Shown: one piece after another, positions 9,351 to 59,114 of the stretch | How positions within the stretch are numbered: the first letter of the stretch is position 1 | Layout: the number at the start of each line of letters is the position of its first letter | DNA from: Nitrosotalea sp. | GTDB taxonomy: Bacteria; Methylomirabilota; Methylomirabilia; Rokubacteriales; CSP1-6 | Assembly (NCBI GenBank): GCA_035519555.1 | Contig: DATIWG010000050.1 | Coordinates: forward strand, 20,040-84,039 | DNA length: 64,000 nt | Reading direction: 5' to 3' | Translations under genes and position numbers: made by a program | Notes under the pieces: model-generated | The model's input: the letters and a program-made list of their open reading frames with translations, nothing else | Told to the model about the DNA's origin: nothing | Databases searched by the model: none

Positions 9351-9788
9351 TCACCGGCAGACCAGCACCGGAATCTTGCTGTGGGTGAGGACCTTGTTGG
9401 TCTCGCTGCCCAGCACGAGGGCGCCCATGCCCTTGCGCCCGTGCGAGGCCATGAAGATCAGATCGCAGCCCTTGGTCCGCGCGGTGTCGACGATCACCTG
9501 ATACGGGTGGTCATGGATCTGGTAGAGCGTCTCGCAGGCGACTCCGGCCACCGCGGCCTCGGCCTTCGCCACGCCGAGGGCCTTCTCGGCCAGCGCCTGG
9601 CTGTCCTTCTCGTACTGCGCGGGCGTGTCGGCCATCATCACGGGATCGAGCGCAAAAGTATGGAACGGCAGCCCCACCGTGAGGACCGTCACCTTCGCCC
9701 GCACGGCCTTGGCGAGCGCAACGCCCTGCCGGATCGCGGCCTCCGACAAGGGCGAGCCGTCGGTCGGGATCAAGATGTGCTTATACAT
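9351..9788 (-). CDS. Universal stress protein (UspA family)
   Basis: Typical Usp fold motifs (ILIPTDGS ... GSETNKVLTHSKIPVLVC). Confidence 0.85.
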   Translation of the reverse strand: MYKHILIPTDGSPLSEAAIRQGVALAKAVRAKVTVLTVGLPFHTFALDPVMMADTPAQYEKDSQALAEKALGVAKAEAAVAGVACETLYQIHDHPYQVIVDTARTKGCDLIFMASHGRKGMGALVLGSETNKVLTHSKIPVLVCR

Positions 9789-10452
9789 GGCGATCTCCTT
9801 CCGGCCAGCCCTCGGCCCCGATGAGGGGGACGAACGCCACCGGCTCCAGGTCCTGGTACTCGTACTCGTGCGCCTCGGTGCGTACGACGCGCACGAGACG
9901 CTGGTCGCCGATCGGACCGACCGGCATGACCAGGCGGCCTCCCACCGCCATCTGGTGCAGGAGTGCCTTGGGCACCTGCGGGCCTCCCGCCGTCACCACG
10001 ATCGCGTCGTAGGGCGCGTGCTCGGGCCAGCCGAGGGTGCCGTCGCCCTCGAGCACGTGGACGTTGGCGTAGCCGAGGGCGGCGAGACGGGCCCGGGCCT
10101 CCTCGGCGAGGGCCCCGACCCGCTCGATGGTGTAGACCTCGGCCGCGATGCGGGAGAGGACCGCGGCGCCGTAGCCCGAGCCGGTTCCGATCTCGAGAGC
10201 CCGGGCGCCCGGCTTCAGCTCGGCGGCCGCGGTCATGACGGCCACGACGTAGGGTTGCGAGATGGTTTGGCCGTGGCCGATCGCCAGCGGCCCATCGTTG
10301 TAGGCGAGGCGCGCGAGCGAGCGCGGCACGAAAGCCTCCCGCGGCACCGCGCGCATCGCGTCAAGCACCTGCGGATCGGTGATGCCCCGCGCCTCGATCT
10401 GCGTGGCGACCATGCGCTCCCGCTCGGCCTGGGTCAGCATCGCGGTCTGCAT
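9781..10452 (-). CDS. pcm: Protein-L-isoaspartate O-methyltransferase
   Basis: 223 aa with SAM-binding motif (LEIGTGSGY) and PCMT family motifs; GAGGAGG Shine-Dalgarno 10 nt upstream. Confidence 0.9.
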   Translation of the reverse strand: MQTAMLTQAERERMVATQIEARGITDPQVLDAMRAVPREAFVPRSLARLAYNDGPLAIGHGQTISQPYVVAVMTAAAELKPGARALEIGTGSGYGAAVLSRIAAEVYTIERVGALAEEARARLAALGYANVHVLEGDGTLGWPEHAPYDAIVVTAGGPQVPKALLHQMAVGGRLVMPVGPIGDQRLVRVVRTEAHEYEYQDLEPVAFVPLIGAEGWPEGDRHV

Positions 10453-10487
10453 CGGGACATCACCTCCTCGCCGGTCCAGCCGCGTGG

Positions 10488-10928
10488 CTACTCGGCCTTG
10501 ATCGGGATCGTGGTGCCCTTCGACGCCGGGGTCTTGGGCAGGGTCACGGTCAGCAGGCCATTCTTGAAGTTCGCGGTCACCTTGCTCGCGTCCACCGCCA
10601 CCGGGAGCCGGATGGTCCGGATGAACGCGCCGTAGGACCGCTCCACCCGATGAAAGCGCTCGTCCTTCTCTTCCTTCTCCTGCTTCTTCTCTCCCTTGAT
10701 CGTCAGCAGGTTCTCCTGGAGCGAGATCTGGATATCTTTCTGCTCCATCCCCGGCACCTCGACCTTGGCGACCAGGCTGTCCTTGGTCTCCGAGATGTCC
10801 ATGCTCGGCGTCCAGTCCCCGAGGGCCGGCAGGTCGTCCCACTTCATCTCGCCGAGGCGGTCGAACAGCTGATCCATCTCGCGCCTCAGGCTTCCCATTC
10901 CCGTCCACGGCATCAGGCCTCGCATCAT
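10488..10928 (-). CDS. Hsp20/alpha-crystallin small heat-shock protein
   Basis: Alpha-crystallin domain (...GLLTVTLPK...); strong Shine-Dalgarno directly upstream; the N-terminal extension in the track ORF is ignored. Confidence 0.85.
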   Translation of the reverse strand: MMRGLMPWTGMGSLRREMDQLFDRLGEMKWDDLPALGDWTPSMDISETKDSLVAKVEVPGMEQKDIQISLQENLLTIKGEKKQEKEEKDERFHRVERSYGAFIRTIRLPVAVDASKVTANFKNGLLTVTLPKTPASKGTTIPIKAE

Positions 10929-10983: not shown

Positions 10984-10999
10984 TGCATCGGAGGTGCCA
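10984..10999 (-). promoter_or_regulatory. Candidate sigma54 promoter (TGGCAC-N5-ATGCA)
   Basis: Read on the minus strand as TGGCACctccgATGCA, with correct GG-N10-GC spacing; the predicted TSS lies about 45 nt upstream of the Hsp20 ATG. Confidence 0.45.
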
Positions 11000-11131
11000 A
11001 GCAAACACCTCAGTGATTCAGCTGGTTGCCTCCCGGTGCAAGCCGGCCGCCCGAGGCGTTTGCGCCCCGGTGTGGCCCCGGCGCCCCAGCGGCGGACAGA
11101 GCCCGGGCCGATGTGGCGTGGCTTTACCTCG

Positions 11132-11147
11132 CGGCACCTGCCTTGCA
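11132..11147 (+). promoter_or_regulatory. Candidate sigma54 promoter (cGGCAC-N5-TTGCA)
   Basis: cGGCACctgccTTGCA lies about 40 nt upstream of the CBS gene ATG at 11189. Confidence 0.45.
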
Positions 11148-11188: not shown

Positions 11189-11611
11189 ATGCTCGGGAAG
11201 ATCTGCACCAAGCCGGTCGTCACCGCCTCGACCCAGATGACGGTCGACGAGGCGGCACGCGCGATGCGATCCAGGAACGTGGGCGCGCTCGTCGTGGTCA
11301 ATGCCGGACGGCCCGTCGGCATGCTGACCGACCGCGACATCGCCGTCGAGGTCGTGGCCCGGGGAATGGACCCGGACTCGACCCGCGTCGGTGACGTGAT
11401 GCGCAAGAAGCCCATGACCATCCGGGAGGACCTGGGCATCTTCGATGCCGCCAAGGCCTTCGCCAGGACCGGCGTCCGCCGGCTTCCCGTCGTCAGCAAG
11501 AGCGGGGTGCTGGTGGGCGTCATCGCGGTGGACGATCTGATCGTGCTGCTGGGCAACGAGCTCGGCCATCTAGCCGGCGCCCTGTCGGCCGGGCTGAGGC
11601 GGGCTTCGTAG
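11189..11611 (+). CDS. CBS domain pair protein
   Basis: 140 aa with two CBS motifs; AGGAGG Shine-Dalgarno 5 nt upstream of the ATG. Confidence 0.85.
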   Translation: MLGKICTKPVVTASTQMTVDEAARAMRSRNVGALVVVNAGRPVGMLTDRDIAVEVVARGMDPDSTRVGDVMRKKPMTIREDLGIFDAAKAFARTGVRRLPVVSKSGVLVGVIAVDDLIVLLGNELGHLAGALSAGLRRAS

Positions 11612-11629
11612 CGCTCGGGCCACAGCGGC

Positions 11630-14482
<2,853 letters not shown>

Positions 14483-14502
14483 CGCCATCGGAGACCGAGA
14501 CC

Positions 14503-15078
14503 ATGAGTCAAGCACTCGACAACCAGCATCTCCTCGTCACGCTCGCAAGGAACTGGTGGATGGTCGGCGTCCGGGGGGCGCTGGCCATCCTGTTCGGCGC
14601 GGTGCTGCTGCTCAGCCCATCCGTCGCGTTCAACATCCTGGTGGCGCTCTTCGGCGGGTACGCCGCGCTGGATGGCGCCTGGGCGATCGGATCCGCGCTG
14701 TGGGCGTCCCGGAGAACGACCGCCGGCTGGCCCATCCTCTTCGAAGGAGCGGCAAGTCTCGGGGTGGCGGCGCTGATCTTCACATGGCCGCTCCTACCCC
14801 GCGAGCTGATCACCGCCATCGTGGTGTGGGGCCTGCTCACCGGTGTGCTCGAGATCATCGCGGCCGTGCGCCTCTCCCGCGTCGGGGCCGCCTACTGGCT
14901 CCTGGGAACGGGCGGCGTCTCCTCCCTGTTCCTGGCCCTGATCATTCTCGTGATCCCTCACGCCACCCATCCCTATGTCGTGAGGGCGCTGGGCGTCTAC
15001 AGCCTCGTCTTCGGTGGTCTGGTCCTCGCGACGGCTCTCTTCCTCCGGAATGCGCTGCTGTCGAGGGACCATGCCTGA
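14503..15078 (+). CDS. hdeD: HdeD/DUF308 family membrane protein
   Basis: 191 aa, six TM segments in paired repeats typical of HdeD-like acid-resistance membrane proteins. Confidence 0.7.
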   Translation: MSQALDNQHLLVTLARNWWMVGVRGALAILFGAVLLLSPSVAFNILVALFGGYAALDGAWAIGSALWASRRTTAGWPILFEGAASLGVAALIFTWPLLPRELITAIVVWGLLTGVLEIIAAVRLSRVGAAYWLLGTGGVSSLFLALIILVIPHATHPYVVRALGVYSLVFGGLVLATALFLRNALLSRDHA

Positions 15079-15604
15079 GCCGGCCGCCACGATCGAGATC
15101 AGGCTCAGCTCGCTCCAGCAGCTGTTCAACTCGCTCGATCCGTCGCCATTCCACGAGCGAGATCTCGACCAGGATGCCGAAGAGTACATCGTGGACTCCA
15201 CCGACGAGATCCCCCTGCAGAAGCCCTTGACCCTGATCATCCATCTGCCTCCGGACCAGATTCCCGGGGACTCGTTCGATCTGGCTCGCGCTATTCACAA
15301 CTACTTCGCCTACCGGCTCACCGAGAGCCGCCGCCGCCTCCGGTTCTTCTTCCGCGACGGCCGCATCTCCCTGCTCGTCGGAGTGGCGTTCCTGTTCGCG
15401 TGCATCGCTCTACGTCAGATCGCCTTCGCCCTCGGGCCGGGAACGGGGTCGGAGATCCTCGCCGAGGGCCTGCTCATCACCGGCTGGGTGGCCATGTGGC
15501 GGCCGCTGGAGATCTTCCTCTACGATTGGCGCCCGCTTCGCCGCCGTTGCCGGCTGCTCGCCAAGCTCTGCGAGATTCCGGTGGTCGTGTCTCCGACTGT
15601 GTGA
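15071..15604 (+). CDS. Hypothetical membrane protein
   Basis: ATG overlaps the hdeD stop (ATGCCTGA); soluble N-terminal half then two TM segments; no recognised family. Confidence 0.55.
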   Translation: MPEPAATIEIRLSSLQQLFNSLDPSPFHERDLDQDAEEYIVDSTDEIPLQKPLTLIIHLPPDQIPGDSFDLARAIHNYFAYRLTESRRRLRFFFRDGRISLLVGVAFLFACIALRQIAFALGPGTGSEILAEGLLITGWVAMWRPLEIFLYDWRPLRRRCRLLAKLCEIPVVVSPTV

Positions 15605-15667
15605 CCTTCGAGATCGCGCTTCGCAAGGCCGGCCTCAGCTCCTCCCAGGCATTGGTGGTGCCCATCC

Positions 15668-16111
15668 TCATGACTCCTCCCGTGGCGTATTCGTCCTTTG
15701 CCGTTCGGCTTCTCCCACGACTGCCCGGATGACATCGGTGGCGGTGAGTATTCCCACGACCCGGCCGTCATCGACCACGGGCAAGGCGCCGAGCTTCCGG
15801 TCGTGCATGACGCGGGCGGCGTCACGGATCTCGGCGTCCGCGCCCACGGTGATAACGGCCCACGTCATGATCTCGTTGACCCTCAAGCGCCCGAGGGCGC
15901 GGGCCACCCGCCCGGCCCCTTCATCGAGGCATCGCTCGAGGATCACCAGCCGGAGATCGTGATCGGTGACTATCCCGATCAGGCGGCGGTCGGCGTCGAG
16001 CACCGGGAGATGGCGCACCTGCCGCGCCAGCATGATGCGCCAGGCCTCCGCCACGGTGGCGTCGTGTCCGACCGTGACCAGGGTGCCGGTCATCAGGTCG
16101 GCGACCCGCAT
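15668..16111 (-). CDS. CBS domain pair protein
   Basis: Two CBS motifs (HLPVLD..., LPVVDDGRVVGILT). Confidence 0.85.
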   Translation of the reverse strand: MRVADLMTGTLVTVGHDATVAEAWRIMLARQVRHLPVLDADRRLIGIVTDHDLRLVILERCLDEGAGRVARALGRLRVNEIMTWAVITVGADAEIRDAARVMHDRKLGALPVVDDGRVVGILTATDVIRAVVGEAERQRTNTPREES

Positions 16112-16130
16112 CGCCCCCTCCGGATATTCG

Positions 16131-19915
<3,785 letters not shown>

Positions 19916-19966
19916 GTCGCGAGCCCCCGCCGACCCGCTCGGGGTCGGGCGCGCGCGTCGGGTGTT

Positions 19967-20416
19967 CTAGGTCGCGCCGTCCGCGGTGGGCCGCAGCAGC
20001 ATCACGGGAACGGTCGCCTTCGCAAAGACCCGCTCGGCCACGCTGCCGAGCAGCACCCGGCCGATGGCGCTCCGTCCCGCGGTACCCACCACGATCAGGT
20101 CGGCCGCGAAGGCGTCGGCCTCGGCGAGGATCTCCGTGACCGGGTCGCCGAACCGCACGACGCTCTCGACAGGCACGTCGAAGTAGAGCTCCAGCGTGTG
20201 CAGATAGTCGAGACCCTGGCTCCGGAGGCTCTCCGTCTCCTGGTCCGCGTACACCACGACCCGGCCCTCGGCGTCGTAGACGGCCGAAGGCGGGGGCGAC
20301 ACGTGCAGCAACCGGACCGTCGCGTGAGCGCCGCGAGCGGTGTCGGCCACGACGGCCGCGACGGCATCCGCGCGCGGCGAGCGGTCGGTCGCCAGCAAGA
20401 TCCTCTTCGTGGTCAT
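19967..20416 (-). CDS. Universal stress protein
   Basis: Usp motifs (ILLATDRS, GSVAERV). Confidence 0.85.
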   Translation of the reverse strand: MTTKRILLATDRSPRADAVAAVVADTARGAHATVRLLHVSPPPSAVYDAEGRVVVYADQETESLRSQGLDYLHTLELYFDVPVESVVRFGDPVTEILAEADAFAADLIVVGTAGRSAIGRVLLGSVAERVFAKATVPVMLLRPTADGAT

Positions 20417-20459
20417 GATCGCCTCCCGGGCGCCCTCGACGCGCGCCCAGTCACCCTCG

Positions 20460-20936
20460 TCATCTCGCCGCCGCGTGGGCCGCCCGCTTGGCCACCTGGG
20501 CCTCGGTGGTCCGCATCAGGAACACGGGGATGTCGACCTGGCGGAGCACGGCCTGGGCGACCGACCCGAAGACGAGGCGGCCCAGCCCGCCGCGGCCGTG
20601 GGTGGACATCGCGATCAGGTCGGCGCCCGTCTCGCGGGCCGCCGCCACGATCTGTTCTTCCGGAGTGCCCCGCCGGACCCGGCTCTCCACCTTCACGCCC
20701 TTGTTGCGCAGCTCCACCGCGATCGGCGCCAGATACTCCCTGGCATCGGTCTGTCGCGCCTCGACGTCCTCCAGCTCGACGTACTGCGATCCCTCGATCA
20801 TCATCGGCCGGATCGGCTCGAGCACCCGCAGGAGGACGATCTCCATGTCGAGCGGACCCGCGATGTCGAGGATGAAGGGAATGATGGCTTCGGCCACCGG
20901 CGAGCCGTCGAGCGGTACGAGCGCACGCTTATACAT
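20460..20936 (-). CDS. Universal stress protein
   Basis: Usp motifs (ALVPLDGS, MSTHGRGGLGRLVFGSVA); the 40 aa N-terminal extension in the track ORF is ignored. Confidence 0.85.
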   Translation of the reverse strand: MYKRALVPLDGSPVAEAIIPFILDIAGPLDMEIVLLRVLEPIRPMMIEGSQYVELEDVEARQTDAREYLAPIAVELRNKGVKVESRVRRGTPEEQIVAAARETGADLIAMSTHGRGGLGRLVFGSVAQAVLRQVDIPVFLMRTTEAQVAKRAAHAAAR

Positions 20937-21420
20937 TGGACGTCTCCTTGGCGGGGCGGGCCTGACCCGTCCCCACGGGGGCCTTGGTGGGTGCCTCGGG
21001 GGCCCGCACCAGCAGGATCGGTGTCGTGGTTCCGCGCAGCACCGACTCGGCCACACTGCCCATGATCAGCCGGCCCAGCCCCCCGCGCCCGTGGGTGGTC
21101 ATCACGATCAGGTCGGCCTTGCGCGCACGGGCCGCGTCCACGATGACGGCGGCGGCGGACCCGTACCAGACGCTGGTCTCGACCTTGGTGACGCCCTGCT
21201 GGCCAAGCCGCCGGGCCACGCTCGCCAGATACTGTTCGGCCTCCTGAACCACATCCACCTGCGCGAGGGTGGGATCGACACCGGGGAACGTCTGGGCCTC
21301 GGCAGCGCGCACCAGCACGAGGGTGGCAAGGCCAGGACGACCCATCTCCACGGCCGTCTCGATGGCGGATTCCGCGAGAGCCGAGCCGTCGAGTGGAACC
21401 AGAACTCTCTCGATTTTCAT
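20929..21420 (-). CDS. Universal stress protein
   Basis: Usp motifs (VLVPLDGS, MTTHGRGGLGRLIMGSVA). Confidence 0.85.
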   Translation of the reverse strand: MKIERVLVPLDGSALAESAIETAVEMGRPGLATLVLVRAAEAQTFPGVDPTLAQVDVVQEAEQYLASVARRLGQQGVTKVETSVWYGSAAAVIVDAARARKADLIVMTTHGRGGLGRLIMGSVAESVLRGTTTPILLVRAPEAPTKAPVGTGQARPAKETSNV

Positions 21421-26477: not shown

Positions 26478-26485
26478 GCGCGTGC

Positions 26486-47003: not shown

Positions 47004-48119
47004 TCACATCCCGAGCTCGGCGCGCAGCCGCACGTAGTGCAGGACCTGCTCGCGGGCGATCATCCCGACCAGCCCGCCGGCCTCCATCACGGGCATCTGC
47101 GCCACGTTGGCGTCGTCCATCTTCTCGAGCGCAGCGAGCAGGTCCGTCTTCGGTCCGACCGCGGTCAGCTTCTCCGCCGGCGTCATGACCTCGCCCGCGG
47201 TCACCGTGGCCCACCGCTCCTTCGGGACGGCCTTGATCTCGTGCAGCGTGAGGAGTCCGACCATCTGGCCGGCCTCGGTCACGACGAAGCACCGCCGCCC
47301 CGCCCCGAGGACTTCCTCGTGGACGACGCGATCGAGGCTCTCGGCGCGCTCCACGCGCCGGCAATCCGGTGTCATCGCCTGGGCCACCGTCACATCACGC
47401 AGCAGCTCGCGCAGGTTGGTCTCGGCGTAGCTGGCCGCGGCGGCGTTCTGGAGGAACCAGCCGATGAAGATGATCCACATGCCCCCGATCACGTTGCCCC
47501 CGAGAACGGTCAGGACCCCCCAGCCCATCAGGCCGAAGGCGAGGGCCTGGCCGGCCAGGGACGCGGCCCGGCTGGCGCGCTGGAAGCTACCCGTCACGCG
47601 CCACACGAGCGCGCGGAACAGGCGGCCTCCGTCCAGCGGAAAGCCCGGTATCACGTTGAAGGCGGCCACCATGAAGTTGATCCGGGCCAGCCAGATCGCG
47701 GGGGCGGCCAGGATCGGGATGTCATGGACCAGCCGCCACGCGCCCGCGAACAGACCCGCCAGGACGAGGCTCGTCAGTGGCCCGGCGCTGGCCACCCTGA
47801 ACTCCACGCCCGGTGTGCCCGGCTCACGGGCAATCTGGGCCAGCCCCCCGAAGATGAAGAGCGTGATCCCCCGGATGGGGATCCCGTTGCGAAGCGCCAC
47901 CCAGGAGTGCCCGAGCTCGTGGATCAGGACGGACGCGAAGAACGCCAGCGCGGTGACCGCTCCCACCAGCCAGTAGGTCCGGGCGGCCCAGCCGGGGTAC
48001 TCGTGCGGGAAGTAGCCGGCCGCCAGCGACCAGGTCACGAGGCCGAAGATGAGGAGCCAGCTCAGGTGAACGTGGATCGGGATACCCCAGATCTCCAGTA
48101 TCTTGAATCGGCCTTGCAA
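47004..48119 (-). CDS. Site-2 protease family (M50) Zn-metalloprotease with C-terminal CBS pair
   Basis: HELGH zinc motif within the TM region plus two CBS domains. Confidence 0.85.
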
Positions 48120-48155
48120 GACCGCACCACCTCCCCGGGCGAAGGGCCGTCCCGC

Positions 48156-48575
48156 TCAGTCTTCCTCGAGCCGGCTCTGCAGCGCCCGCAGCACGTCCAC
48201 GTAGCTGATGATCCCGATCACGCTTCGGGTCCCCGTCTCGACCACCGGGAGGGCGCCGATCTTGTGATCGATGAGGAGGTCGATCACCTCGATCGCTTCC
48301 GCGTCCGGCTCGACGAAGATCACGTCCGGCTGCATGACGCTGAGCACCGGGGTGGCCAGTGCCTGCTGCAGCGCATCCACGCCCTGGACGTTGAGCACCC
48401 GGACGAGATCGAGCCGGGCCAGGTCGCGGTCGCTCAGCATGCCCACCAGGCTGGCGCCCTCGACGACCGGGACATGTCGGATATCCGCCTCGCGCATCAG
48501 GTCCCATACCTCCGCGATGCTCGTCTTGGGCGTCACGGTTGCCACGTCCGGAGTCATCAGGTCACGGGCAATCAT
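48156..48575 (-). CDS. CBS domain pair protein
   Basis: Two CBS motifs; AAAGGAG Shine-Dalgarno 7 nt upstream. Confidence 0.85.
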   Translation of the reverse strand: MIARDLMTPDVATVTPKTSIAEVWDLMREADIRHVPVVEGASLVGMLSDRDLARLDLVRVLNVQGVDALQQALATPVLSVMQPDVIFVEPDAEAIEVIDLLIDHKIGALPVVETGTRSVIGIISYVDVLRALQSRLEED

Positions 48576-48604: not shown

Positions 48605-48620
48605 CGCAAGCGTGGTGCCA
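48605..48620 (-). promoter_or_regulatory. Candidate sigma54 promoter (TGGCAC-N5-TTGCG)
   Basis: Read on the minus strand as TGGCACcacgcTTGCG; the predicted TSS is about 19 nt upstream of the CBS ATG and would drive the CBS, S2P-CBS and BON genes. Confidence 0.45.
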
Positions 48621-48746
48621 GCCTCGGGCGGGAGAAACCCGGCCCTGGTCGCAGGACAGAGGGCTCCGGGGCCGCCAAGGTGGGGCACCGGCTCCCCGAC
48701 TGAGACAGCGGAACCGCAGCGCCCTCGACCCGCACCGGGGGCTTCT

Positions 48747-49482: not shown

Positions 49483-50607
49483 ATGCCGCACAGGAAACCG
49501 ACGGAGCCCGTGACCTCGCGCCGCCGCGTGCTCGCGGCCGGCCTCGCGCTGCTGGGTCTGCCCACCACCGCCCGGAGCCGCGGGCAGGATGCGGAAGCGC
49601 GACCCGGGATGGTGAAGGGGGTCTACCTCTCCTACCACGGCGTCGGCGACCGCACGATTCGAGGGCGGGTGCTCGACCTCCTCGACCGAACGGAGCTGAA
49701 CGCGGTCGTGATCGACGTCAAGGGAGACGAGGGCTTCCTCCCGTTCGACAGTCAGGTTCCGCTCGCCCGGGAGGCCGGGGCCACGGGGAGAGTACGCGTC
49801 CGCGATTTCGACGGCATGCTGGCTCGATTGAAGGCGCAGGGCGTCTATCTCATCGCCCGGATCGTCGCCTTCAAGGACAACGTCCTCGCGCGTCATCGCC
49901 CGGGGTGGGCCATCACCGATACCGGCACCGGCTCGCTCTGGCTCGACGCCGAGCGGCTGGCGTGGCTCGATCCCTTCGAGGAGGAAGCGTGGGCCTACCC
50001 CATCGCCATCGCGACCGAAGCGGCTCGAAAGGGCTTCGACGAGATTCAGTTCGACTACCTCCGGTTCCCGACCGACGGACCGCTCGGCAAGGCGCGCTAC
50101 TCGCGATCGAGCACCCCGCCGAGCCGCCGGCAGGCCATCGGCGCGTTCCTGGAGCAGGCCCGCGCGGCGCTCCGGCCCACCGCCTCCTTGCTGGCCATCG
50201 ACGTGTTCGGCTACACCGCCTTCAATCTGGACGACACCGGAATCGGACAGGGTATCGAGAGCCTGGCGCCGCTGGTCGACGTCCTGTCCCCGATGGCCTA
50301 TCCGTCGGCCTACCACCTCGGTATCCCCGGCTACCGGAACCCGGTCACCCATCCCTACGAGGTCGTCTTCGAGACGGTGCGGAAGATGCGAGAGCGGACG
50401 GCCGGAGGGCGCGCGCAGGTGCGGCCGTGGATCCAGAATTTCCGTGACTATGCCTTCGACCGCCGGGAGTTCGGAGTCGCGGAGGTCCAGGCGCAGATGA
50501 AGGCCGCCCTCGACGCGGGAGGCAGCGGCTGGATGCTCTGGAACCCGCAGAATCGCTACACGGTCGAGGCACTGGAGCCCAGGCCCGGACCGGCGAGGTC
50601 CAGGTAG
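49483..50607 (+). CDS. Putative secreted glycoside hydrolase-like protein (DUF4015/GHL family) with Tat signal
   Basis: SRRRVLAAGLALLG signal then a TIM-barrel-like domain (VIDVKGDEG, FDEIQFDYLRFP); family assignment is tentative. Confidence 0.6.
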   Translation: MPHRKPTEPVTSRRRVLAAGLALLGLPTTARSRGQDAEARPGMVKGVYLSYHGVGDRTIRGRVLDLLDRTELNAVVIDVKGDEGFLPFDSQVPLAREAGATGRVRVRDFDGMLARLKAQGVYLIARIVAFKDNVLARHRPGWAITDTGTGSLWLDAERLAWLDPFEEEAWAYPIAIATEAARKGFDEIQFDYLRFPTDGPLGKARYSRSSTPPSRRQAIGAFLEQARAALRPTASLLAIDVFGYTAFNLDDTGIGQGIESLAPLVDVLSPMAYPSAYHLGIPGYRNPVTHPYEVVFETVRKMRERTAGGRAQVRPWIQNFRDYAFDRREFGVAEVQAQMKAALDAGGSGWMLWNPQNRYTVEALEPRPGPARSR

Positions 50608-50828
50608 TCCACGCAGGCGTCGAGCGTCGTCAGCTTGGGATAGTCGGCTTCCGGAATCTCGACGTCGAGCGCGGCGTGCAGCGCGATCACGAAGTTGAGG
50701 TGGTCCATCGAGTCCAGGTCGAGCTGGTCCCGGAAAGGCACGTCGGAGGCGAGCGCGGCCACGTCGACCTCGGGCGCGATCTCGCCGAGCGTGCGCAGGA
50801 CGGTGGCCCGGATCTCGTCGCGGGTCAC
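50556..50828 (-). CDS. Acyl carrier protein
   Basis: 90 aa with 4'-phosphopantetheine motif [11 protein letters not shown]; start overlaps the E2 stop by 4 nt. Confidence 0.75.
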
Positions 50829-52000
50829 AGCCGACTCGGCTCCTGCAGCAGCCGATCCACCGCGGCCAGGAAGAGGCCGCCGCGGTGGCCGTCACTCACG
50901 CGATGATCGGCGGACAGGGTGGCGGTGACGAGGGGGCGGACGGTGACCTGCCCGTCGACGACCCACGGGCGCTCGGCGATCTTCCCGAAGCCCACGATCG
51001 CGACCTGCGGCGGGAAGATCACCCCGAAGACGCTCTCCACGCCCTGCTCGCCGAGGCTGGTGACGGTGATGGTGGGATCGGAGAGCTCCGAGCTCCGGAG
51101 CCCGCCGCTACGCGCGCGCTGGACGAGGTCGCGAAGGGCTCGCATCAGTTCGCCCACGCTCTGTCCGGCTGTGTCGTGGAGCGCCGGCGCCACGAGGCCT
51201 CCGCCGCGCAGCGAGACGGCCACCCCGACGTGGACGGCGTCGCTCCGGACCGGCTCGGTCCCGCGCCACACCGAGTTCAGCTCGGGGACCTCCCGCAGGG
51301 CCAGCGCGACGGCCTTGATCAGCAGCACGCCGTAGAGGAGGCGGTCCGGAACCGGCCGCGCGAGATTCTCCGCGGTGAGCCAGGTCATCGCCCGGTGCAT
51401 GTCGATCGTCGTCGCGAGGTAGTAGTGAGGGATCTCGCGCTTGGAGCGCGCCATCGCGGCCCCGATCGCCTGGCGCAGCCGGGCCTGCCGGTCGAGCGCG
51501 CCGCCGGGCTTCGCGGCCGCGGGCGCGGCTCTCGCGGCCGCCGCCTGCTCGATGTCCTCTCGTCGGATCGACCCACCCGGGCCGGTGCCGTGGACGGCCG
51601 CGGGATCGATCCCCAACTCGGCGGCGCGCTTCCTCGCCAGCGGCGAGATCCGGAGCCGGTCGGATGGGGCCGCCGCCGGCACGACCGCCGCCGACGGCGT
51701 GGCGATGATCGGCGCGCGTGGCGTCGGCGGCGCGGCCGTCACGGACGCGGGGACCGCGGCCGGCACCGTGTCCCGGACGATCGCGAGCACCGTGCCCGTG
51801 GGCACCGTCGCGCCCGGCTGAACGACGATCTTCTCGAGCACGCCGGGCGTGAAGACCTCGATGTCGATGAGCCCCTTGTCGGTCTCGACCACCGCGATGG
51901 TGTCGCCCCGCTTGAGCGCGTCTCCCGGCTGCTTGCGCCACTCGACGAGCGTGCCCGCGCTCATGTCCGCGGTCAGGATCGGCATCAGGAACTCAGCCAT
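50825..52000 (-). CDS. 2-oxoacid dehydrogenase E2 (dihydrolipoamide acyltransferase)
   Basis: Lipoyl domain (ETDKG), E3-binding domain and catalytic domain (DHRVSDG). Confidence 0.9.
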
Positions 52001-52976
52001 GCGCGACCAGCATCTCCCTCACCGCTGTCGCGATGGCCGACACCTGGGGTAGCGCCGCGTCCTCCATGTGCTTGGCGTACGGCATCGGGACCTCGGCGCT
52101 GCACACGCGAGCGACCGGGGCGTCCAGGCTGTAGAAGCCGCCCTCCATGATCCGGGCGCTCACCTCGGCCGCGAAGCTGCCGGTGCGCCATCCCTCGTCC
52201 ACGATCACCGCCCGGTGGGTCCTGGCCACCGAGGCGAGAATGGTCTCGGTATCGAGGGGCCGCAGGGTGCGCAGGTCGATTACCTCGGCCTCGACGCCCT
52301 CCCGGGCGAGCTCGTCGGCGGCCCGGAGCGTCGTGCCGAGGGTCCCGCCGTAGGTGATCAGGCTCACCGCATCCCCGGAACGTCGGACCAGGGCCCGGCC
52401 GATCGCGGCGGGTCCGGCCTGCTCGTCGACCTCCCCTTCCAGCGGATAGAGCGTCGCGTGCTCGAAGATGAACACCGGATCCGGGTCACGCAGCGCGGCC
52501 AGCACGAAGCCCCGCGCGTCGGCGGCGACGGCGGGAACCACGATCTTGATCCCCGGGATGTGCGCGAACCAGCCTTCGAGGCTGTGGGAGTGCTGGGCCG
52601 CGAGCTGTCGGCCACCGCCGGTGGTCATGCGCACCACCAGCGGCACGCTGAGCTGGCCGCCGGACATGTGGCGGAGGGTCGCCGCGTTGTTGACGATCTG
52701 GTCCAGGGCCAGCAGGCTGAAGTTGACCGTCATGATCTCCACGATCGGACGCATCCCGCCGAGCGCGGCGCCGATGCCGGCACCCAGGAAGGTGTTCTCG
52801 GACAAGGGCGTGTCCCGCACGCGCTCGGGGCCGAACTCCTCGAGCAGCCCGTAGCTGACCTTGAAGGCGCCGCCGTAGCCCCCCACGTCTTCTCCCATCA
52901 GGAACACGCGCGGATCCGTCCGCAGCGCTTCCCGCAGCGCCGAGCGGATCGCGTCCCGGTAAGTCATCTTGGTCAT
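51993..52976 (-). CDS. 2-oxoacid (pyruvate/acetoin-type) dehydrogenase E1 beta subunit
   Basis: 327 aa with transketolase-like Pyr and C-terminal domains; start overlaps the E1-alpha stop (ATGA). Confidence 0.9.
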
Positions 52977-53934
52977 GGGGTCGCCGTGTACACGTCTCGG
53001 GTCAAGTCCTGCACCGCCTCCCAGGGTCCGGCCTCGGCCACGCCCACCGCCTCGTCGACCTCTCCGTCGACGGACGCCTGCAGCGAAGCCACGTCGGCGT
53101 CGGTCAGGATGCCCATCGCCTGCAGTCGCGCCGTGAACAGCACGATCGGATCGCGCTGCTTCCACTCCGCGACCTCCTCCCTCTTCCGGTAGAGCTCGGG
53201 ATCGGCGGTGGAGTGGGCCCGGAACCGATAGGTCCGCAGCTCCAGCAGGAAGGGGCCGTCGCCGCGCCGCACGTGCGCGGCGGCCTGCCGGGCGGCTTCT
53301 TCCACCGCCACGACGTCCATCCCGTCGGCGACGGCCGACGGCATCCCGTAGCCATCCGCCTTGCGGCGGATATCGGGCTGGGCCTGGTGGCGCGCGAGCG
53401 CGGTGCCCATCGCGTAGAGGTTGTTCTCGCAGAGGAAGAGGACCGGCAACTTCCACAGCGCGGCCAGGTTCAGCGACTCGTGGAACTCCCCCTCCGCCAC
53501 CGCCCCGTCGCCGAAGAAGCACGCGGTCACCCTGGGCCGGGCCTGCAGCTTGTCGGCCAGGGCCAGGCCCACCGCGACGGGCAGGCCGCCGCCGACGATG
53601 GCGTGGCCGCCGTAGAACCGGCGCGAGGCGTCGAAGAAGTGCATGGAGCCGCCGCGGCCCCGGCTGCACCCGTTGGCCTTGCCGTACATCTCGGCCATGA
53701 GCGAGCCGGCCGGGATCCCGCGCGCCAGGGCCTGGCCGTGCTCGCGGTAGGTCGCCACGATGGCGTCCTCCGCCGTGAGGGCCTGCATGGCCCCGACCGC
53801 CACCGCTTCCTCGCCGATGTAGAGGTGGAGGAAGCCGCGGATCTTGCCGAGCGTGTAGAGCTCGGCGGCCTTTTCCTCGAATCGCCGTATGAGCATCATC
53901 TGGCGGAGCAGGACGAGCGCGTGAGCCCGGTCGA

Positions 53935-53938
<4 letters not shown>
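52973..53938 (-). CDS. 2-oxoacid dehydrogenase E1 alpha subunit (TPP-binding)
   Basis: TPP motif ([31 protein letters not shown]); start overlaps the acs stop (ATGA). Confidence 0.9.
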
Positions 53939-55710
<1,772 letters not shown>

Positions 55711-55734: not shown

Positions 55735-55750
55735 AGCAACCACGGTGCCA
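55735..55750 (-). promoter_or_regulatory. Candidate sigma54 promoter (TGGCAC-N5-TTGCT)
   Basis: Read on the minus strand as TGGCACcgtggTTGCT; the predicted TSS is just upstream of the Shine-Dalgarno and GTG of the acs-E1-E2-ACP operon. Confidence 0.45.
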
Positions 55751-55872
55751 ACGACTCGACCGCGAGGAATCCCGACGAATCGCGGCATTGCGCGTCCGCG
55801 GCCCCGGCGTCCCGGCGGCCGAGCGGGAGACGGCGCCTCAGGTCGGGGCACCCCGGTCCCATGATAGGGTGC

Positions 55873-56835
55873 TCACCCCGTCGCCACCGGGCCCGCTCCG
55901 ATCTTCTTCGCCAGCGGATTCATCACTCGCGCGGCGTTCTGGATGCTCGGCGGGCTGTTCGGGGCCTTCTTCCTGCTGGCGCTGGTCGGGCTCGGGGTGC
56001 CCTGGCTCCTCTGACACTCCGCTTCGCGGCCGCGGACCACGCGCTGCCCGGCCAGGGACCCCGACGTCTCGGTCACCACCGTCCGCTGCCCCTCCGGGTG
56101 GTGGTCCGTGTGGAAGTAGAGGACAACCCAGTCACGGGTCTTCGCCAGCTGATGCGCGCGCGCGGTGTTGGAGAAGACGGCGGTGAGGTGCCAGCGATCG
56201 CGCTCGGTGTGGAGCACGGGCAGCCAGGCTTCGCCGGTGGGGTTGAAGCGACGAGGAGCGATCCGGGGCAGCCGGCCGGCCGCCGCCGCCTGTCGATATT
56301 CCCGATCCACGTCGAGCAGCACCTCGACCGGCGGCTCCTCCGCCGGCTCGCGGGGCCGGAGCCGGGTGCGACCGAGCATGCCGCCAAGCGCGGCGCGGAG
56401 CGCGGCGGCGCGGCGTGGACCGACTCCGGGGACTTGGTCCAGGCGCCCGTCGTGGGCCGCCACCTCGAGCGCCTCCAGGGTCTCCACGTGCAGCAGCTCG
56501 TGGAGGCGTTGCGCGAGCGCCGGTCCGACCCCGGGAATGGCCCGAAAGAGCCGCTCGGGATCCGAGCCCCCGCGTAGCCGGTCGAGCTGACTCCACCGGC
56601 CGGTGCGCAGCATCTCGGCGATCGCGGCGGCAATCCGGGGGCCGATGCCCGGCAGCGCCTCGAGCCCCTCGAGACCGTCGCGCTCGTGGATCTCGCCGAG
56701 CTCGGTCGCAAGGTGGGCCACGGTGGCGGCGGCGTCACGGTAGGCGCGAACGCGGAATGGATTGGCTCGCTGCTGCTCCAGCAGATCGGCCGCCTCGCGG
56801 AGCCGGTCCCCGATGATCTGGTTGGTCGCGCTCAC
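55873..56835 (-). CDS. PolX-like helix-hairpin-helix DNA-binding protein with no recognisable polymerase palm
   Basis: N-terminal Pol-beta-like 8 kDa/HhH region (NPFRVRAYRDAA, GIGPRIAAAI, GVGPALA) but no GS-RRG...D-D palm motif; GTG start overlaps the CBS-ACT stop (GTGA). Confidence 0.55.
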   Translation of the reverse strand: MSATNQIIGDRLREAADLLEQQRANPFRVRAYRDAAATVAHLATELGEIHERDGLEGLEALPGIGPRIAAAIAEMLRTGRWSQLDRLRGGSDPERLFRAIPGVGPALAQRLHELLHVETLEALEVAAHDGRLDQVPGVGPRRAAALRAALGGMLGRTRLRPREPAEEPPVEVLLDVDREYRQAAAAGRLPRIAPRRFNPTGEAWLPVLHTERDRWHLTAVFSNTARAHQLAKTRDWVVLYFHTDHHPEGQRTVVTETSGSLAGQRVVRGREAECQRSQGTPSPTSASRKKAPNSPPSIQNAARVMNPLAKKIGAGPVATG

Positions 56836-57485
56836 GACGGCGCGCGCGGGCTCCGCCCGGCGTCCCGAACGACATATCCTCGGCCCTCCAGCGCCCTGAC
56901 CGCGGGGCCGGGATCGATCGTCGCGAGGCGCAGCACGACCTCTCGCTCGCCGGTCGGGGTCTCGAAGGTCATGACGCTGGAGATCCGGCTCCCCGTGTCC
57001 TCGGCTGCCCGTACGATGTCGCTCAGCCCCGCCGCGCGATCGCTCACGATCACGTCGAGCCGGCTCGAGGGCTCGAGGACGCCCAGTGCCCGCACGAACA
57101 GGTGGAGCACGTCGGTTTCGGTCACGATGCCGAGGAGCCGGTCGTCCTCGGTGACCGGCAGCGCGCTGATCTTCCGCGTCGCCATCAGCCGGGCGGCCTC
57201 CTCGACACCGTCCGTGGGCCCGATCGTGGTCACCCGGCGCGTCATGATCTGACCCGCGGTCAGCTCGTCGAGGAGCCGCGCGCGCTCCGGGCCCTCGGTC
57301 ATGAGGGCGGCCGAGGTCATCGACTGCTTGACGTCGCGATCGGAGACGATCCCCACCAGCTTGCCTGAGTCCACGATCGGCACGTGACGGAAGCCTCGGC
57401 GCTGCAGCAGCCGGACCAGCGCGGGCAGGCGCGTCTCGGGCGTCGCGCTGACCGGATGACCCTGCATGATGTCCCGGACGAGCAT
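56832..57485 (-). CDS. CBS pair protein with C-terminal ACT-like domain
   Basis: Two CBS motifs followed by an ACT-like segment (LDVIVSDRAAGLSDIV...); 3 nt gap after groEL. Confidence 0.8.
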   Translation of the reverse strand: MLVRDIMQGHPVSATPETRLPALVRLLQRRGFRHVPIVDSGKLVGIVSDRDVKQSMTSAALMTEGPERARLLDELTAGQIMTRRVTTIGPTDGVEEAARLMATRKISALPVTEDDRLLGIVTETDVLHLFVRALGVLEPSSRLDVIVSDRAAGLSDIVRAAEDTGSRISSVMTFETPTGEREVVLRLATIDPGPAVRALEGRGYVVRDAGRSPRAPS

Positions 57486-57488
57486 CGC

Positions 57489-59114
57489 TCACATCCCCTC
57501 GAGACCGGGCGCCCCTGCCCCTTCTTCCTTCTTCTCCGGAATCTCGGTCAGGGTGGCTTCGGTCAGCAGCAGCAGGCTGGCGACCGAGACCGCGTTCTCG
57601 AGCGCGACGCGAACGACCTTGGTGGGGTCGATGATGCCGGCGTCCACCAGGTCGACGTACTCCTTGCGGGCGGCGTCGAAGCCCATGTTGCCTTTACCGA
57701 TCCGCATCTGGTTCACCACCACCCCGCCGTCGACCGACGAGTTCTCGGCGATCTGGCGGGTGGGCGACTCCAGGGCGCGCCGGAGGATCTGCAGGCCCGT
57801 GCGCTCGTCGCCCTCACACTTGCCTTCCTCCCGCTCCACCGCCTCGATCGCCCTCAAGAGCGCGAGCCCGCCGCCGGGCACGATGCCCTCGGCCACCGCG
57901 GCCTTGGTCGCGCTGATGGCGTCGTCGAGCGCCTCCTTCTTGCTCTTCATCTCCGACTCGGAGGGCGCCCCCACCCGGATGACGGCGACGCCTCCCGAGA
58001 GCTTGGCGAGCCGCTCCTGCAGCTTCTCGCGGTCGTAGTCACTGGTGGTCTTGTCGATCTGGGCCCGGATCTGCTGCCGGCGGCCATCGATGTGCGCCTT
58101 GTCGCCCGCGCCGCCGATGAGCGTGGTGTTGTCCTTGTCGACGACGACCCGGTTGGCCCGGCCGAGATCCTCGATGTTGACCGCCTCGAGCTTGATGCCG
58201 ATCTCCTCGGTGAGCACGCGGCTGCCGGTCAGCACGCCCATGTCCTCGAGCATCTCCTTCCGCCGGTCGCCGAAGCCGGGAGCCTTGACCGCGGCACACT
58301 TGAGCGAGCCCCGGATCTTGTTGACCACGAGGGTGGCCAGCGCCTCGCCCTCCACGTCCTCGGCCACGATCAGGATCGACCGGCCCGCTCGCGCGACCTG
58401 CTCGAGGATCGGGACCAGATCCTTCATCACGCCGATCTTCCGGTCGGTGAGCAGGATCAGCGTGTCCTCGAGCACCGCCTCCATCTTCTCGGCATCGGTG
58501 ATGAAGTACGGCGAGAGGTAGCCGCGGTCGAACTGCAGGCCCTCGACCACCTCGAGCTGGGTCTCGGTGGTCTTGGACTCCTCCACCGTGATCACCCCCT
58601 CGTTGCCCACCTTTTCCATCGCATCGGCGACCATGTCGCCGATGCTCTGGTCGTTGTGAGCGGAGATGGTGGCGATCTGGGCCTTCTCCAGGCGGCTCTT
58701 CACCGGGCGCGAGAGCAGCTTCAGCGCGTCCACCGCCACGCGAGCCCCGCGATCGAGCCCCTTCTTGAGATCCACCGCGCTCGCTCCGGCCACCACGTTC
58801 CGCACGCCGTCGGCGAAGATGGCATGGGCGAGGATGGTGGAGGTGCTGGTGCCGTCTCCCACCGCGTCGCCGGTCCGCTCCGCGGCCTGGCGGATCATCT
58901 GAGCTCCCAGATTCTCGACGTGGTCCCGGAGCTCCATCTCCTTGGCGATGGTCACGCCGTCGTTGCACACCACCGGCGTACCGAATCGCTTCTCCAGGAG
59001 CACGCACTTGGACTTCGGTCCGAGGGTGACTCGAACCGCATCGGCCAGGGCGGTGACACCGCGGAGGATTCGCTCACGGGCCTCGGACCGGAAGAGCACT
59101 TGCTTGGAAGCCAT
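57489..59114 (-). CDS. groL: Chaperonin GroEL
   Basis: 541 aa, full-length GroEL with C-terminal G/M-rich tail; no groES immediately upstream. Confidence 0.95.

Follow-up and report, generated by a model that had tools for sequence, protein, structure and literature searches.

A contiguous block of stress, repair and hibernation genes in a soil Rokubacteria contig with sigma-54 promoters and a shared enhancer: likeness to the NmpR, DosR and OsdR systems

In Myxococcus xanthus, the NtrC-like regulator NmpR has been established experimentally to act at sigma-54 promoters that drive CBS, Usp and P-type ATPase genes under hypoxia (PMC11841059). In the DosR system of Mycobacterium tuberculosis (Mtb), the CBS gene Rv2626c is co-transcribed with Rv2625c, a putative Zn metalloprotease gene, and with a Usp gene; DevR needs tandem boxes ~21 bp apart, and the boxes can serve divergent promoters (PMC3177182, PMC7753917). 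A DosR-regulated S30AE protein stabilises ribosomes in hypoxic mycobacteria (PMC3390679). The OsdR region of Streptomyces coelicolor, SCO0167–SCO0219, is contiguous, adjoins the regulator gene and holds 8 of the 11 Usp genes of the genome (PMC5069765). A further conserved neighbourhood, HPF-baeRF-1, has been described with a predicted role in translational shutdown (Burroughs and Aravind 2019, PMC6514570). The Rokubacteria are widespread in soil and have never been cultured; to account for their combination of large genomes and very small cells, dormancy has been proposed, without a genetic basis (Becraft et al., PMC5712423), and the literature that we searched held no paper linking Rokubacteria to sigma-54. 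We describe here a stretch of 64,000 nucleotides (nt) of a soil Rokubacteria (Methylomirabilota) contig, DATIWG010000050.1 (the whole stretch is called the window below), most of which belongs to an island of ~80 kb. We are confident that this island is a sigma-54 regulon with a shared enhancer. It is probably one contiguous sigma-54/NtrC-type regulon for maintenance in a non-growing state, a reading in which the trigger and the dormancy function are predicted. The part of the island inside the window extends over 2838-64000, with no strand assigned, and continues at both ends.

The GC content of the window is ~70% throughout, at which plain lists of open reading frames (ORFs) are useless, and genes were therefore called with a codon-usage model trained on long high-GC3 ORFs; every called gene was scanned against Pfam. 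A search with TGGCAC-N5-TTGCW, allowing at most one mismatch, gave 10 matches in the window against 0.6 expected, a number reached by none of 100 shuffles. All ten are intergenic, though intergenic DNA makes up 8% of the window, and all ten point at genes, with a same-strand start codon 19–79 bp downstream that usually has a clear ribosome-binding site. The top motif returned by a de novo motif finder from nine intergenic regions, with no prior, was TTGGCAC-N5-TTGC. Scored with a sigma-54 position weight matrix (PWM), the ten sites reach 16–23 bits and the best coding match 12.5; the next matches after the ten are both intergenic, upstream of Usp5 (13.5 bits) and of PGA_cap (11.3 bits). Four weaker sites (21608, 24765, 43976 and 59666) lie at a similar distance from the enhancer described below as the strong ones. 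The extents of the operons in the following list were deduced from strand and a gene gap of at most 200 bp, overlaps and short gaps, by which ~47 of the 63 window genes would fall into sigma-54-headed units. The GDH and OPT genes (window 1-2827) have no sigma-54 promoter of their own.

10984-10999, minus strand: sigma-54 promoter TGGCACCTCCGATGCA, 21.6 bits, kept in relatives L006/L007; heads sHsp1-Pcm-Usp1 and probably also ABC/MacB-PpsA-ABC-ABC2-cytochrome c (2838-10928)
11132-11147, plus strand: sigma-54 promoter, invariant in alignment A1; heads CBS1, an ACP-FAAL-acyltransferase fusion, DUF308/HdeD and hyp177 (11189-15604)
21457-21472, minus strand: sigma-54 promoter of perfect consensus, 22.7 bits; heads Usp4-Usp3-Usp2-PolX-LigA-CBS2 (15668-21420)
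21608-21623, plus strand: weaker sigma-54 promoter with two mismatches, 11.3 bits, at the mirrored canonical distance, 58/76 bp, from the enhancer units; heads PGA_cap/CapA-like (21676-22773)
24068-24083, minus strand: sigma-54 promoter, kept in L007/L008; heads CBS3 (23454-24014)
24765-24780, minus strand: weaker sigma-54 promoter with two mismatches, 13.5 bits, 52/72 bp from the units; heads Usp5 (24217-24618 or longer)
24921-24936, plus strand: sigma-54 promoter, with an orthologous promoter in L007; heads hyp87 and MlaC1 (24989-25881)
33167-33182, minus strand: sigma-54 promoter, 21.4 bits; would head HU-CBS4-P-loop(453 aa)-sHsp2-Lon-L,D-transpeptidase-M15 peptidase as one operon (25935-33148)
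35242-35257, minus strand: sigma-54 promoter, 18.9 bits; heads a Pro/Trp-rich secreted protein (34871-35206), a glycine-zipper lipoprotein (34323-34874) and an AIR-synthase-like protein (33301-34296)
43976-43991, minus strand: candidate weak sigma-54 promoter with two mismatches, below the top PWM matches and, from its coordinates, ~74/94 bp from the enhancer units at 44057-44092; would head hyp58 and YdjM (43184-43947)
44136-44151, plus strand: sigma-54 promoter; heads the glutamine-dependent NAD+ synthase NadE (44230-46302; NCBIfam equivalog match, 1036 bits)
48605-48620, minus strand: sigma-54 promoter; heads CBS5, the S2P(M50)-CBS protease and BON x3 (46313-48575)
55735-55750, minus strand: sigma-54 promoter of perfect consensus, 20.9 bits; heads acyl-CoA synthetase, E1 alpha, E1 beta, E2 and ACP (50556-55710)
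59666-59681, minus strand: candidate weak sigma-54 promoter GGGTAT-N5-TTGCA with three mismatches, 6.0 bits, GG and TTGCA being kept; its sole support is its position, 63/83 bp downstream of enhancer-like units; would head YbaK-like, GroEL, AcuB-like CBS-ACT and PolX-N-terminal-like (55873-59650)

Once these promoters were masked, the motif finder returned a second motif from the same intergenic regions. It is a unit of 16 bp, GGGG[C/A]G-N5-GC[C/T]C, whose arms make an inverted repeat, though an imperfect one (GGGG-N8-CCCC), and most of the transcription units have one or two copies of it. The units are paired 19–20 bp apart on the same DNA face, with the centre of the proximal unit 52–74 bp and that of the distal unit 72–94 bp upstream of the -24 GG, which puts them at about -75 to -120 relative to the expected start site. 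Enhancers of the NtrC family usually lie in this range, and in the sigma-54 class activator sequences lie at roughly -80 to -150. Overall, unit matches are about as many in the window as chance would give (19 against 17.8 expected), but 13 of the 19 are concentrated in the sigma-54 promoter regions, which add up to 2,077 bp or 3.2% of the window (binomial p = 1e-15). A PWM of the tandem unit gives 7 matches in the window, all intergenic and beside sigma-54 promoters, with none in the coding 92% and 0–2 in shuffles. Since the motif itself came from these regions, the statistics for the window carry some circularity. At four places a single tandem enhancer is common to two divergent promoters, namely 10984(-)/11132(+), 21457(-)/21608(+), 24765(-)/24921(+) and 43976(-)/44136(+). 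The weaker partner has two mismatches in three of the four, and these partners are supported as real by their mirrored canonical distance from the enhancer. The enhancer elements of the window, to which no strand is assigned, are as follows.

11053-11087: tandem enhancer with units 19 bp apart, 27 bits, common to the sHsp1 and CBS1 promoters; an invariant block in A1
21525-21559: tandem enhancer, 30.1 bits, common to the Usp4 and PGA_cap promoters
24147-24182: tandem enhancer found with the tandem PWM, serving CBS3
24824-24859: tandem enhancer, 28.6 bits, common to the Usp5 and hyp87-MlaC promoters
33248-33283: tandem enhancer found with the tandem PWM, serving the HU-Lon operon
44057-44092: tandem enhancer, 29.3 bits, common to the hyp58 and NadE promoters
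48682-48697: single enhancer unit GGGGAGCCGGTGCCCC on the side of the CBS5 operon, its centre 70 bp from the -24 GG
55824-55860: weaker tandem enhancer, 18.1 bits, serving the acyl-CoA synthetase operon
59736-59771: enhancer-like tandem, GGGGAGGCGCTGTCCC-ACCT-GAGGCGGGCCTGCTC, read directly from the sequence and under the threshold of the tandem PWM

Two other descriptions of the enhancer were set aside. The strict composite pattern GAGGC-N2-8-CCYC-N4-GRGG fits the window and is too strict for the relatives, and it was superseded by the 16-bp unit; the palindrome CGCCCC-N5-GGGGC alone is not above chance.

The same arrangement was found in 22 Rokubacteria loci totalling 368 kb. Of 100 unit matches in these relatives, 28 fall in the 1.7% of the sequence that lies 10–200 bp upstream of sigma-54 matches (p = 3e-26), in a test that is less circular than that in the window although some of the relatives' regions are orthologous to those of the window. 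The 19–20 bp pairing of the units recurs. In 25 of 34 cases the sigma-54 match precedes a homologue of an island gene by 16–159 bp (sHsp x4, Usp x6, CBS x5, HPF x3, BON, S2P-CBS, PolX, YbaK and a receiver protein). In three alignments of orthologous intergenic regions, with a mean column identity of 71–77%, the -24/-12 elements and the enhancer block stand as invariant islands amid drift. Between relatives the sequence separating the two units of the CBS3 enhancer changes from CCTC-GATC-GAGG to CCTC-AGCT-GAGG, with the palindrome kept. Gene order around PolX-LigA is scrambled between relatives, and the families that stay together are Usp, CBS, sHsp, BON, GYD, baeRF, GroEL, PolX-N-terminal-like, E1/E2, NadE, Pcm and HU.

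Neither the window nor the relatives centred on PolX encode a sigma-54 activator, and the candidate came from the DNA beyond the window. The GroEL protein of the window is found, identical letter for letter, on ena:ERZ27256499:k141_3352177, a contig of 176,125 bp from a soil metagenome, as well as on several soil contigs of JGI; the window corresponds to ~98,091-162,090 of the first of these, reverse-complemented, and its flanks, L057 on the 3' side and L058 on the 5' side, are the same contig beyond the window ends. An NtrC-type activator gene is located at L057 47-1447, ~8.3 kb beyond the 3' end of the window. It encodes a 466-aa NtrC-family response regulator with a receiver, an AAA+ domain and a C-terminal helix-turn-helix (HTH). 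The receiver (Pfam Response_reg) has the phospho-acceptor Asp, in the sequence LLLTDFKMPEMDG; the AAA+ domain (PF00158, Sigma54_activat) has the Walker A motif GESGTGKE and EKGAFTGA, both read directly; and the C-terminal Fis-type HTH is a faint match to PF02954 HTH_8. The presence of GAFTGA implies that this genome has sigma-54, although rpoN itself was not seen in the ~100 kb of it that the analysis covered. Across the 120 protein clusters listed the activator is 83–91% identical, and wherever a name is given these are Rokubacteria/Methylomirabilota; a metagenome scan with the activator as query returned generic activators only, at 40–49% identity (L062-L141). That this adjacent gene encodes the regulator of the regulon is fairly likely, judging from its position and domains.

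Outward from the 3' end of the window, L057 first shows a perfect sigma-54 promoter at 9560-9575 with an enhancer unit, ahead of HPF-baeRF, and farther out come a type IIA Ca-type P-ATPase gene and an acetyltransferase gene. An operon of Usp, Usp, APH-like kinase, a double APS-kinase-like P-loop protein, a single-domain receiver, CBS and TPR is headed by a perfect sigma-54 promoter with a tandem enhancer, and the activator gene lies directly upstream of that promoter. The interval between activator and window thus holds further sigma-54 promoters, two more Usp genes and another CBS gene. In four other genomes, too, Usp-Usp and further island genes come after the activator, with different genes on its upstream side from genome to genome, so the activator marks the edge of the island. 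Its linkage to the promoter and enhancer is kept in every relative examined. On the 5' side, past GDH and OPT, a divergent sigma-54 pair (L058 14820/14976) separates OmpA from a HAD hydrolase-P-type ATPase unit. With the enhancer-like unit GAGGCGGCGCTGTCCC lying between the OmpA and HAD promoters, this pair indicates that the regulon extends past the 5' end of the window too. Altogether the island of ~80 kb has at least 14–17 transcription units and at least 17 sigma-54 promoters. The wiring to sigma-54 that the initial annotation had proposed for these stress genes is thus borne out by the ten window promoters, the de novo motif, the conserved footprints and the NtrC-type activator with GAFTGA at the island edge.

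Several genes in these flanks and their counterparts in relatives deserve separate mention. The APH-like kinase (366 aa), the double APS-kinase-like P-loop protein (370 aa) and the receiver (119 aa) occupy L057 2547-5157, ~4.6–7.2 kb past the 3' end of the window; the set is kept in L142, L143 and L144, with no histidine kinase nearby, and may, on its gene content, act on the response regulator by an unconventional route, as input or as feedback. The HAD hydrolase (579 aa) is followed by a second P-type ATPase at L058 14257-19263, ~4–9 kb before the 5' end of the window. In the relative L061 a PAS-PAS-HisKA-HATPase kinase is encoded inside the island (14856-16538, minus strand), between sHsp and Usp genes, and is a candidate for the type of the cognate kinase. 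In the relative L142, ~9 kb upstream of the activator gene, lies a gene for a PAS-GerE (LuxR-type) regulator (565-1393) that has a sigma-54 promoter of its own together with an exact match to the enhancer unit; its product is possibly a second-tier regulator of the same programme.

The genes on which the island was first remarked are listed here; all assignments are from Pfam unless stated otherwise.

9351-9788, minus strand: Usp1
19967-20416, minus strand: Usp2
20460-20936, minus strand: Usp3
20929-21420, minus strand: Usp4
24217-24618, minus strand: Usp5, the real start probably lying farther upstream
11189-11611, plus strand: CBS1, stand-alone CBS pair
15668-16111, minus strand: CBS2, stand-alone CBS pair
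23454-24014, minus strand: CBS3, stand-alone CBS pair
32370-32804, minus strand: CBS4, stand-alone CBS pair
48156-48575, minus strand: CBS5, stand-alone CBS pair
56832-57485, minus strand: AcuB-like CBS-ACT (217 aa), the sixth stand-alone CBS pair (Pfam and PDB)
47004-48119, minus strand: CBS-S2P protease (Peptidase_M50 and CBS)
10488-10928, minus strand: sHsp1
30597-31007, minus strand: sHsp2
9781-10452, minus strand: Pcm
46313-46966, minus strand: BON x3 protein
14560-15078, plus strand: DUF308/HdeD
32807-33148, minus strand: HU
28195-30600, minus strand: Lon
18164-19915, minus strand: PolX
16131-18167, minus strand: LigA
57489-59114, minus strand: GroEL, 3 nt from the CBS-ACT gene
4799-7201, minus strand: PpsA, complete
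38817-41471, strand not stated: PpsA-like protein (884 aa) without the PEP-utilizers_C domain
63742-64000, minus strand: HPF (S30AE), cut by the window end; the full gene of 133 aa is in L057
62604-63731, minus strand: baeRF family 10 (baeRF_family10), directly after HPF

Gene calling and Pfam confirm five Usp genes, three of them in tandem at 19967-21420, and six stand-alone CBS pairs with one CBS-S2P protease, as the initial annotation had it; the two sHsp, Pcm, BON, HdeD, HU, Lon and the DNA repair genes PolX and LigA are likewise present at or near the positions that it gave. HPF and PpsA are also there, though not in the span 9351-59114 to which they had been assigned. HPF starts at 63742 and is truncated by the end of the window, and the complete PpsA lies at 4799-7201; the protein within the span, 38817-41471, is PpsA-like, its PEP-synthase-like and rifamycin-phosphotransferase-like scores (Pfam, NCBIfam) being equal and all below the cut-offs. 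The groEL gene at 57489-59114, 3 nt from the CBS-ACT gene, does lack a groES partner, none being found anywhere in the window. Its product matches E. coli GroEL across residues 1-537 with E 1e-176 and is thus a GroEL paralogue of the ordinary group I kind. The low Pfam score of 227 bits had suggested a thermosome-like chaperonin of group II/III, independent of GroES, which this match excludes. Extra copies of groEL without groES are common in bacteria, and the missing groES is therefore unremarkable. The AcuB-like protein has a CBS pair followed by a C-terminal ACT-like domain and matches PDB 5awe over its full length (residues 1-208, E 6e-32) as well as AcuB structures. The Usp and CBS paralogues are mutually 22–57% identical, and at this identity they are old copies rather than recent tandem duplicates. 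The core of the Usp ATP-binding motif G-2x-G-9x-G(S/T) is kept in most copies, with the first Gly substituted in several, and Usp5 has no such motif.

Local enrichment was measured against the non-island DNA that precedes the activator gene in five Rokubacteria genomes (~49 kb of flanks, 48 genes). With the island taken as the stretch that starts at the cytochrome c gene and ends at the activator gene, Usp and CBS genes make up 15 of its 74 genes and 0 of 48 in the flanks (Fisher p = 3e-4). The five flanks hold two sigma-54 matches only, one of them weak and the other heading the PAS-GerE gene of L142.

These results can be put together in a model. The phosphorylated regulator encoded at the island edge would bind the paired units as dimers on one face of the DNA, oligomerise into an AAA+ ring and use ATP to remodel and open sigma-54 promoter complexes; the four enhancers between divergent promoters could fire both sides, and one regulator would switch on all island promoters together. 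The predicted output is a maintenance kit for non-growing cells. Usp and CBS proteins would account for nucleotide binding and sensing, and the two sHsp, Lon, the GroEL paralogue, Pcm and the S2P protease for proteostasis and repair. DNA upkeep would fall to PolX and LigA (gap-filling repair and ligation) and the nucleoid protein HU; translation shutdown and RNA care to HPF-baeRF (ribosome hibernation with a release-factor-like partner), RtcA and YbaK; the envelope to the L,D-transpeptidase and M15 peptidase, MlaC x2, MMPL, BON, PAP2 and the FAAL-acyltransferase; and the supply of NAD and PEP to NadE and PpsA.

Of the described systems, NmpR is, by analogy, the closest mechanistic relative of the island system. 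Both have an NtrC-like response regulator (in the island a candidate), two dyad-symmetric intergenic enhancer sites, sigma-54 promoters and, as targets, a CBS operon, single-domain Usp and P-type ATPase genes (PMC11841059); in both the gene of the regulator, or candidate regulator, adjoins the targets, and both organisms are soil bacteria. The NmpR site is GCGCA-N5-TGCGC with 14–15 bp between sites (PMC11841059), a pattern with 9 matches in the window against 11.2 expected and none in a sigma-54 promoter region. Further, the NmpR regulon is small (7 promoters) and scattered and includes cbb3 oxidase, hemN and hemerythrin, which are absent in the island, and NmpR sits with the heme kinase NmpU and a phosphorelay, whereas no kinase is seen in the island.

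The resemblance to the DosR regulon, to which the initial annotation had pointed, holds at the level of gene families and takes in more of them than were then named: Usp, alpha-crystallin sHsp, CBS, S30AE/HPF and Ca-type P-ATPase (ctpF) (PMC3177182, PMC7753917, PMC3390679). The operon of a CBS gene followed by a Zn-metalloprotease gene, Rv2626c-Rv2625c in Mtb, has a counterpart in CBS5-S2P of the island, and the control logic is alike in its tandem palindromes ~20 bp apart, common to divergent promoters, and in a two-component response regulator, for which the island has a candidate. PDB searches with one CBS protein and one Usp did not single out Mtb Hrp1 and Rv2623, and the likeness to the Mtb proteins is therefore at family level only. 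DosR, which has the heme-GAF kinases DosS/DosT and belongs to a regulon induced by hypoxia, NO or CO, is a NarL/LuxR-type regulator at sigma-70-type promoters, whereas the island has sigma-54 promoters and a candidate AAA+ enhancer-binding protein. The genes for nitrate respiration, nitroreductases and tgs1 are absent from the island, which adds PolX, LigA, Lon, GroEL, Pcm, BON and many envelope genes; and the DosR loci are scattered on the chromosome while the island is one contiguous block of ~80 kb. A 20-mer consensus of the Dev box gave no match in the window with up to 3 mismatches, and the Dev box core GGGAC-N4-GTCCC has a spacer of 4 nt where the island units have 6. Lacking a NarL-type regulator, a Dev box and sigma-70-type promoters, the island is an analogue of the DosR regulon and not a member of it.

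In being a contiguous Usp-rich block beside a regulator gene, with a gene of the PEP/pyruvate dikinase family, the island resembles the OsdR region, and the OsdR sites are 16-bp palindromes with G/C arms such as GGGGCCGACCGTCCCT (PMC5069765). OsdR differs in being a NarL-type DevR orthologue without sigma-54, in the prominence of nitrate reductase and in a half-site spacing 2 bp shorter than that of the island units; the resemblance of the enhancer to OsdR/DevR sites may be a coincidence in GC-rich DNA or convergence. As in HPF-baeRF-1, the HPF gene of the island is directly followed by a baeRF_family10 gene, here under a perfect sigma-54 promoter with an enhancer unit and within a far larger predicted co-regulated island. 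On these analogies the island is a counterpart of the DosR/OsdR and Myxococcus NmpR systems and a member of none.

A wider claim is possible, though we hold it short of likely: that the island is a lineage-wide dormancy or persistence programme with one sigma-54 enhancer code, one NtrC-type master regulator and at least 17 promoters, many of them bidirectional, and is the convergent counterpart of actinobacterial DosR/OsdR. The convergence would then conceivably include the tandem G/C-arm palindromes ~20 bp apart and the CBS-then-S2P-protease operon. The island would be an unusually large and compact sigma-54 regulon, and it shows that the Usp/CBS/sHsp/HPF toolkit of DosR/OsdR can be placed under a wholly different transcription mechanism. 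The island gives a testable regulon, with a promoter class, an enhancer sequence, a candidate master regulator 83–91% identical across the lineage and ~60 target genes that could be followed in soil metatranscriptomes (drying/rewetting, anoxia). Its shared bidirectional enhancers would make a neat system for the study of one enhancer-binding protein assembly serving two sigma-54 promoters.

A number of points weigh against a single dormancy regulon under the adjacent activator. The genome surely encodes other sigma-54 activators, any of which could own the enhancer. No sensor kinase is encoded in the island, and no window gene has a histidine-kinase or GerE/LuxR domain in Pfam. The promoter at 35242-35257, ahead of the Pro/Trp-rich protein (PRP), has no enhancer unit that we could find, and there is no detectable sigma-54 promoter for MMPL-MlaC2-PPDK_N, PAP2, LPG-synthase-TM, MBL, DUF4015, MAT, RtcA and GYD. 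The partial circularity of the enhancer statistics in the window, the orthology of some regions in the relatives and the restriction of the enrichment comparison to ~49 kb of flanks count on the same side. The hallmarks of hypoxia, namely high-affinity oxidase, nitrate reductase and hemerythrin, are absent from the island, and for this reason the trigger may not be oxygen; energy limitation or drying is a plausible trigger in soil.

That the programme serves a dormancy-like state rather than acute stress is, from the gene content, quite possible but short of likely. The same wiring of sigma-54 and one activator could instead serve a general acute stress response (heat or proteotoxic, desiccation or osmotic, or envelope damage), which we consider rather unlikely. 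The sHsp, Lon, GroEL, BON/OsmY-like, HdeD-like and Pcm genes are classic acute-stress genes, the absence of hypoxia-specific respiratory genes would suit such a response, and in Myxococcus the NtrC-type activator HsfA drives the heat-shock gene lonD. The set of HPF-baeRF, PolX-LigA, L,D-transpeptidase, NadE, Pcm and many Usp and CBS genes points rather to long-term maintenance, and no CIRCE/HrcA element is present. Sequence alone is insufficient to separate the two.

It is improbable that the units are bound by some other regulator, either another sigma-54 activator or a DosR/OsdR-like protein of the GerE family, with the adjacent activator merely a member of the neighbourhood. Such a protein would fit the likeness of the units to OsdR/DevR sites, which have G-run/C-run arms in a 16-bp palindrome in tandem ~20 bp apart (PMC5069765, PMC3177182), and the PAS-GerE gene of L142 does carry a sigma-54 promoter and enhancer unit. 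The fixed position of the units 50–95 bp upstream of -24 and their arms of 5–6 nt with an N5-6 spacer are nevertheless the geometry of the NtrC family (compare the NmpR site, PMC11841059); the Dev box, whose 20-mer is unmatched, has a spacer shorter by 2 bp; and the activator stays linked to the promoter and enhancer in all of the relatives examined.

A classical NtrC/AtoC-type regulon for nitrogen or carbon limitation, with the stress genes as passengers, is more improbable still. The best NCBIfam matches of the activator are AtoC, the PEP-CTERM-box regulator and NtrC, and GDH and the glutamine-dependent NadE are encoded nearby. All of these matches, however, are below the equivalog cut-offs (AtoC 477 against 714, NtrC 429 against 559), so that the activator reaches no named equivalog; the island contains no glnA, glnK, amtB or ato gene; GDH and OPT lack a sigma-54 promoter of their own; and the enhancer is unlike the NtrC site TGCACC-N5-GGTGCA.

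Clustering without regulatory meaning, by chance accumulation of paralogues (Rokubacteria have large genomes, in which Usp and CBS copies may be numerous) or as a recently acquired mobile island, is largely refuted by the shared promoters and enhancer, a uniform GC content of 0.67–0.74, the absence of tRNA genes from the window and of integrases or transposases from the Pfam matches of its genes, the concentration of Usp and CBS genes in the island, and the recurrence of the same families in shuffled order in relatives whose PolX is 67–88% identical, all from Candidatus Rokubacteria/Methylomirabilota assemblies.

Some further features of the window genes were noted. The L,D-transpeptidase (YkuD, with PG_binding and Scaffold domains) and the DUF882/M15 peptidase (25935-28174, minus strand) appear to form one operon with Lon and sHsp2, and this predicted co-transcription suggests that remodelling of the 3-3 cross-links in peptidoglycan is linked to stress. 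The same HU-to-Lon operon contains, between CBS4 and sHsp2, the gene of a 453-aa P-loop protein (30989-32350, minus strand) with weak LpxK/CobW Pfam matches, no NCBIfam match and a homologue in L010. The final gene of the GroEL operon encodes a PolX-N-terminal-like protein (55873-56835, minus strand) with only HHH_8/HHH_5 domains, without palm, thumb and PHP, and this too has a homologue in L010. The two small genes behind the promoter at 35242-35257 (34323-35206, minus strand) overlap by ATGA and were both missed by the codon-based caller; their products are a signal-peptide protein of 111 aa rich in Pro, Trp and Tyr (34871-35206) and a glycine-zipper lipoprotein of 183 aa (34323-34874).

RtcA (RNA 3'-phosphate cyclase) and a GYD-domain protein adjoin HPF-baeRF at 61047-63731. 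Homologues of GYD recur in the islands of the relatives L012, L013, L016, L017 and L056, and the only RtcA-like match among the loci compared is in a non-Rokubacteria locus, L037. The rtc operon of E. coli is sigma-54 dependent; no sigma-54 site was found for RtcA in the window. Divergent from RtcA and directly upstream of the YbaK-GroEL operon is an archaeal-type S-adenosylmethionine synthetase gene (PF01941, E 6e-127) at 59782-60975 on the minus strand, here in a bacterial genome. Finally, the gene that follows CBS1 (11681-14482, plus strand) encodes a 933-aa fusion of a carrier-protein domain, a fatty acyl-AMP ligase and a PlsC-type acyltransferase (Aas-like).

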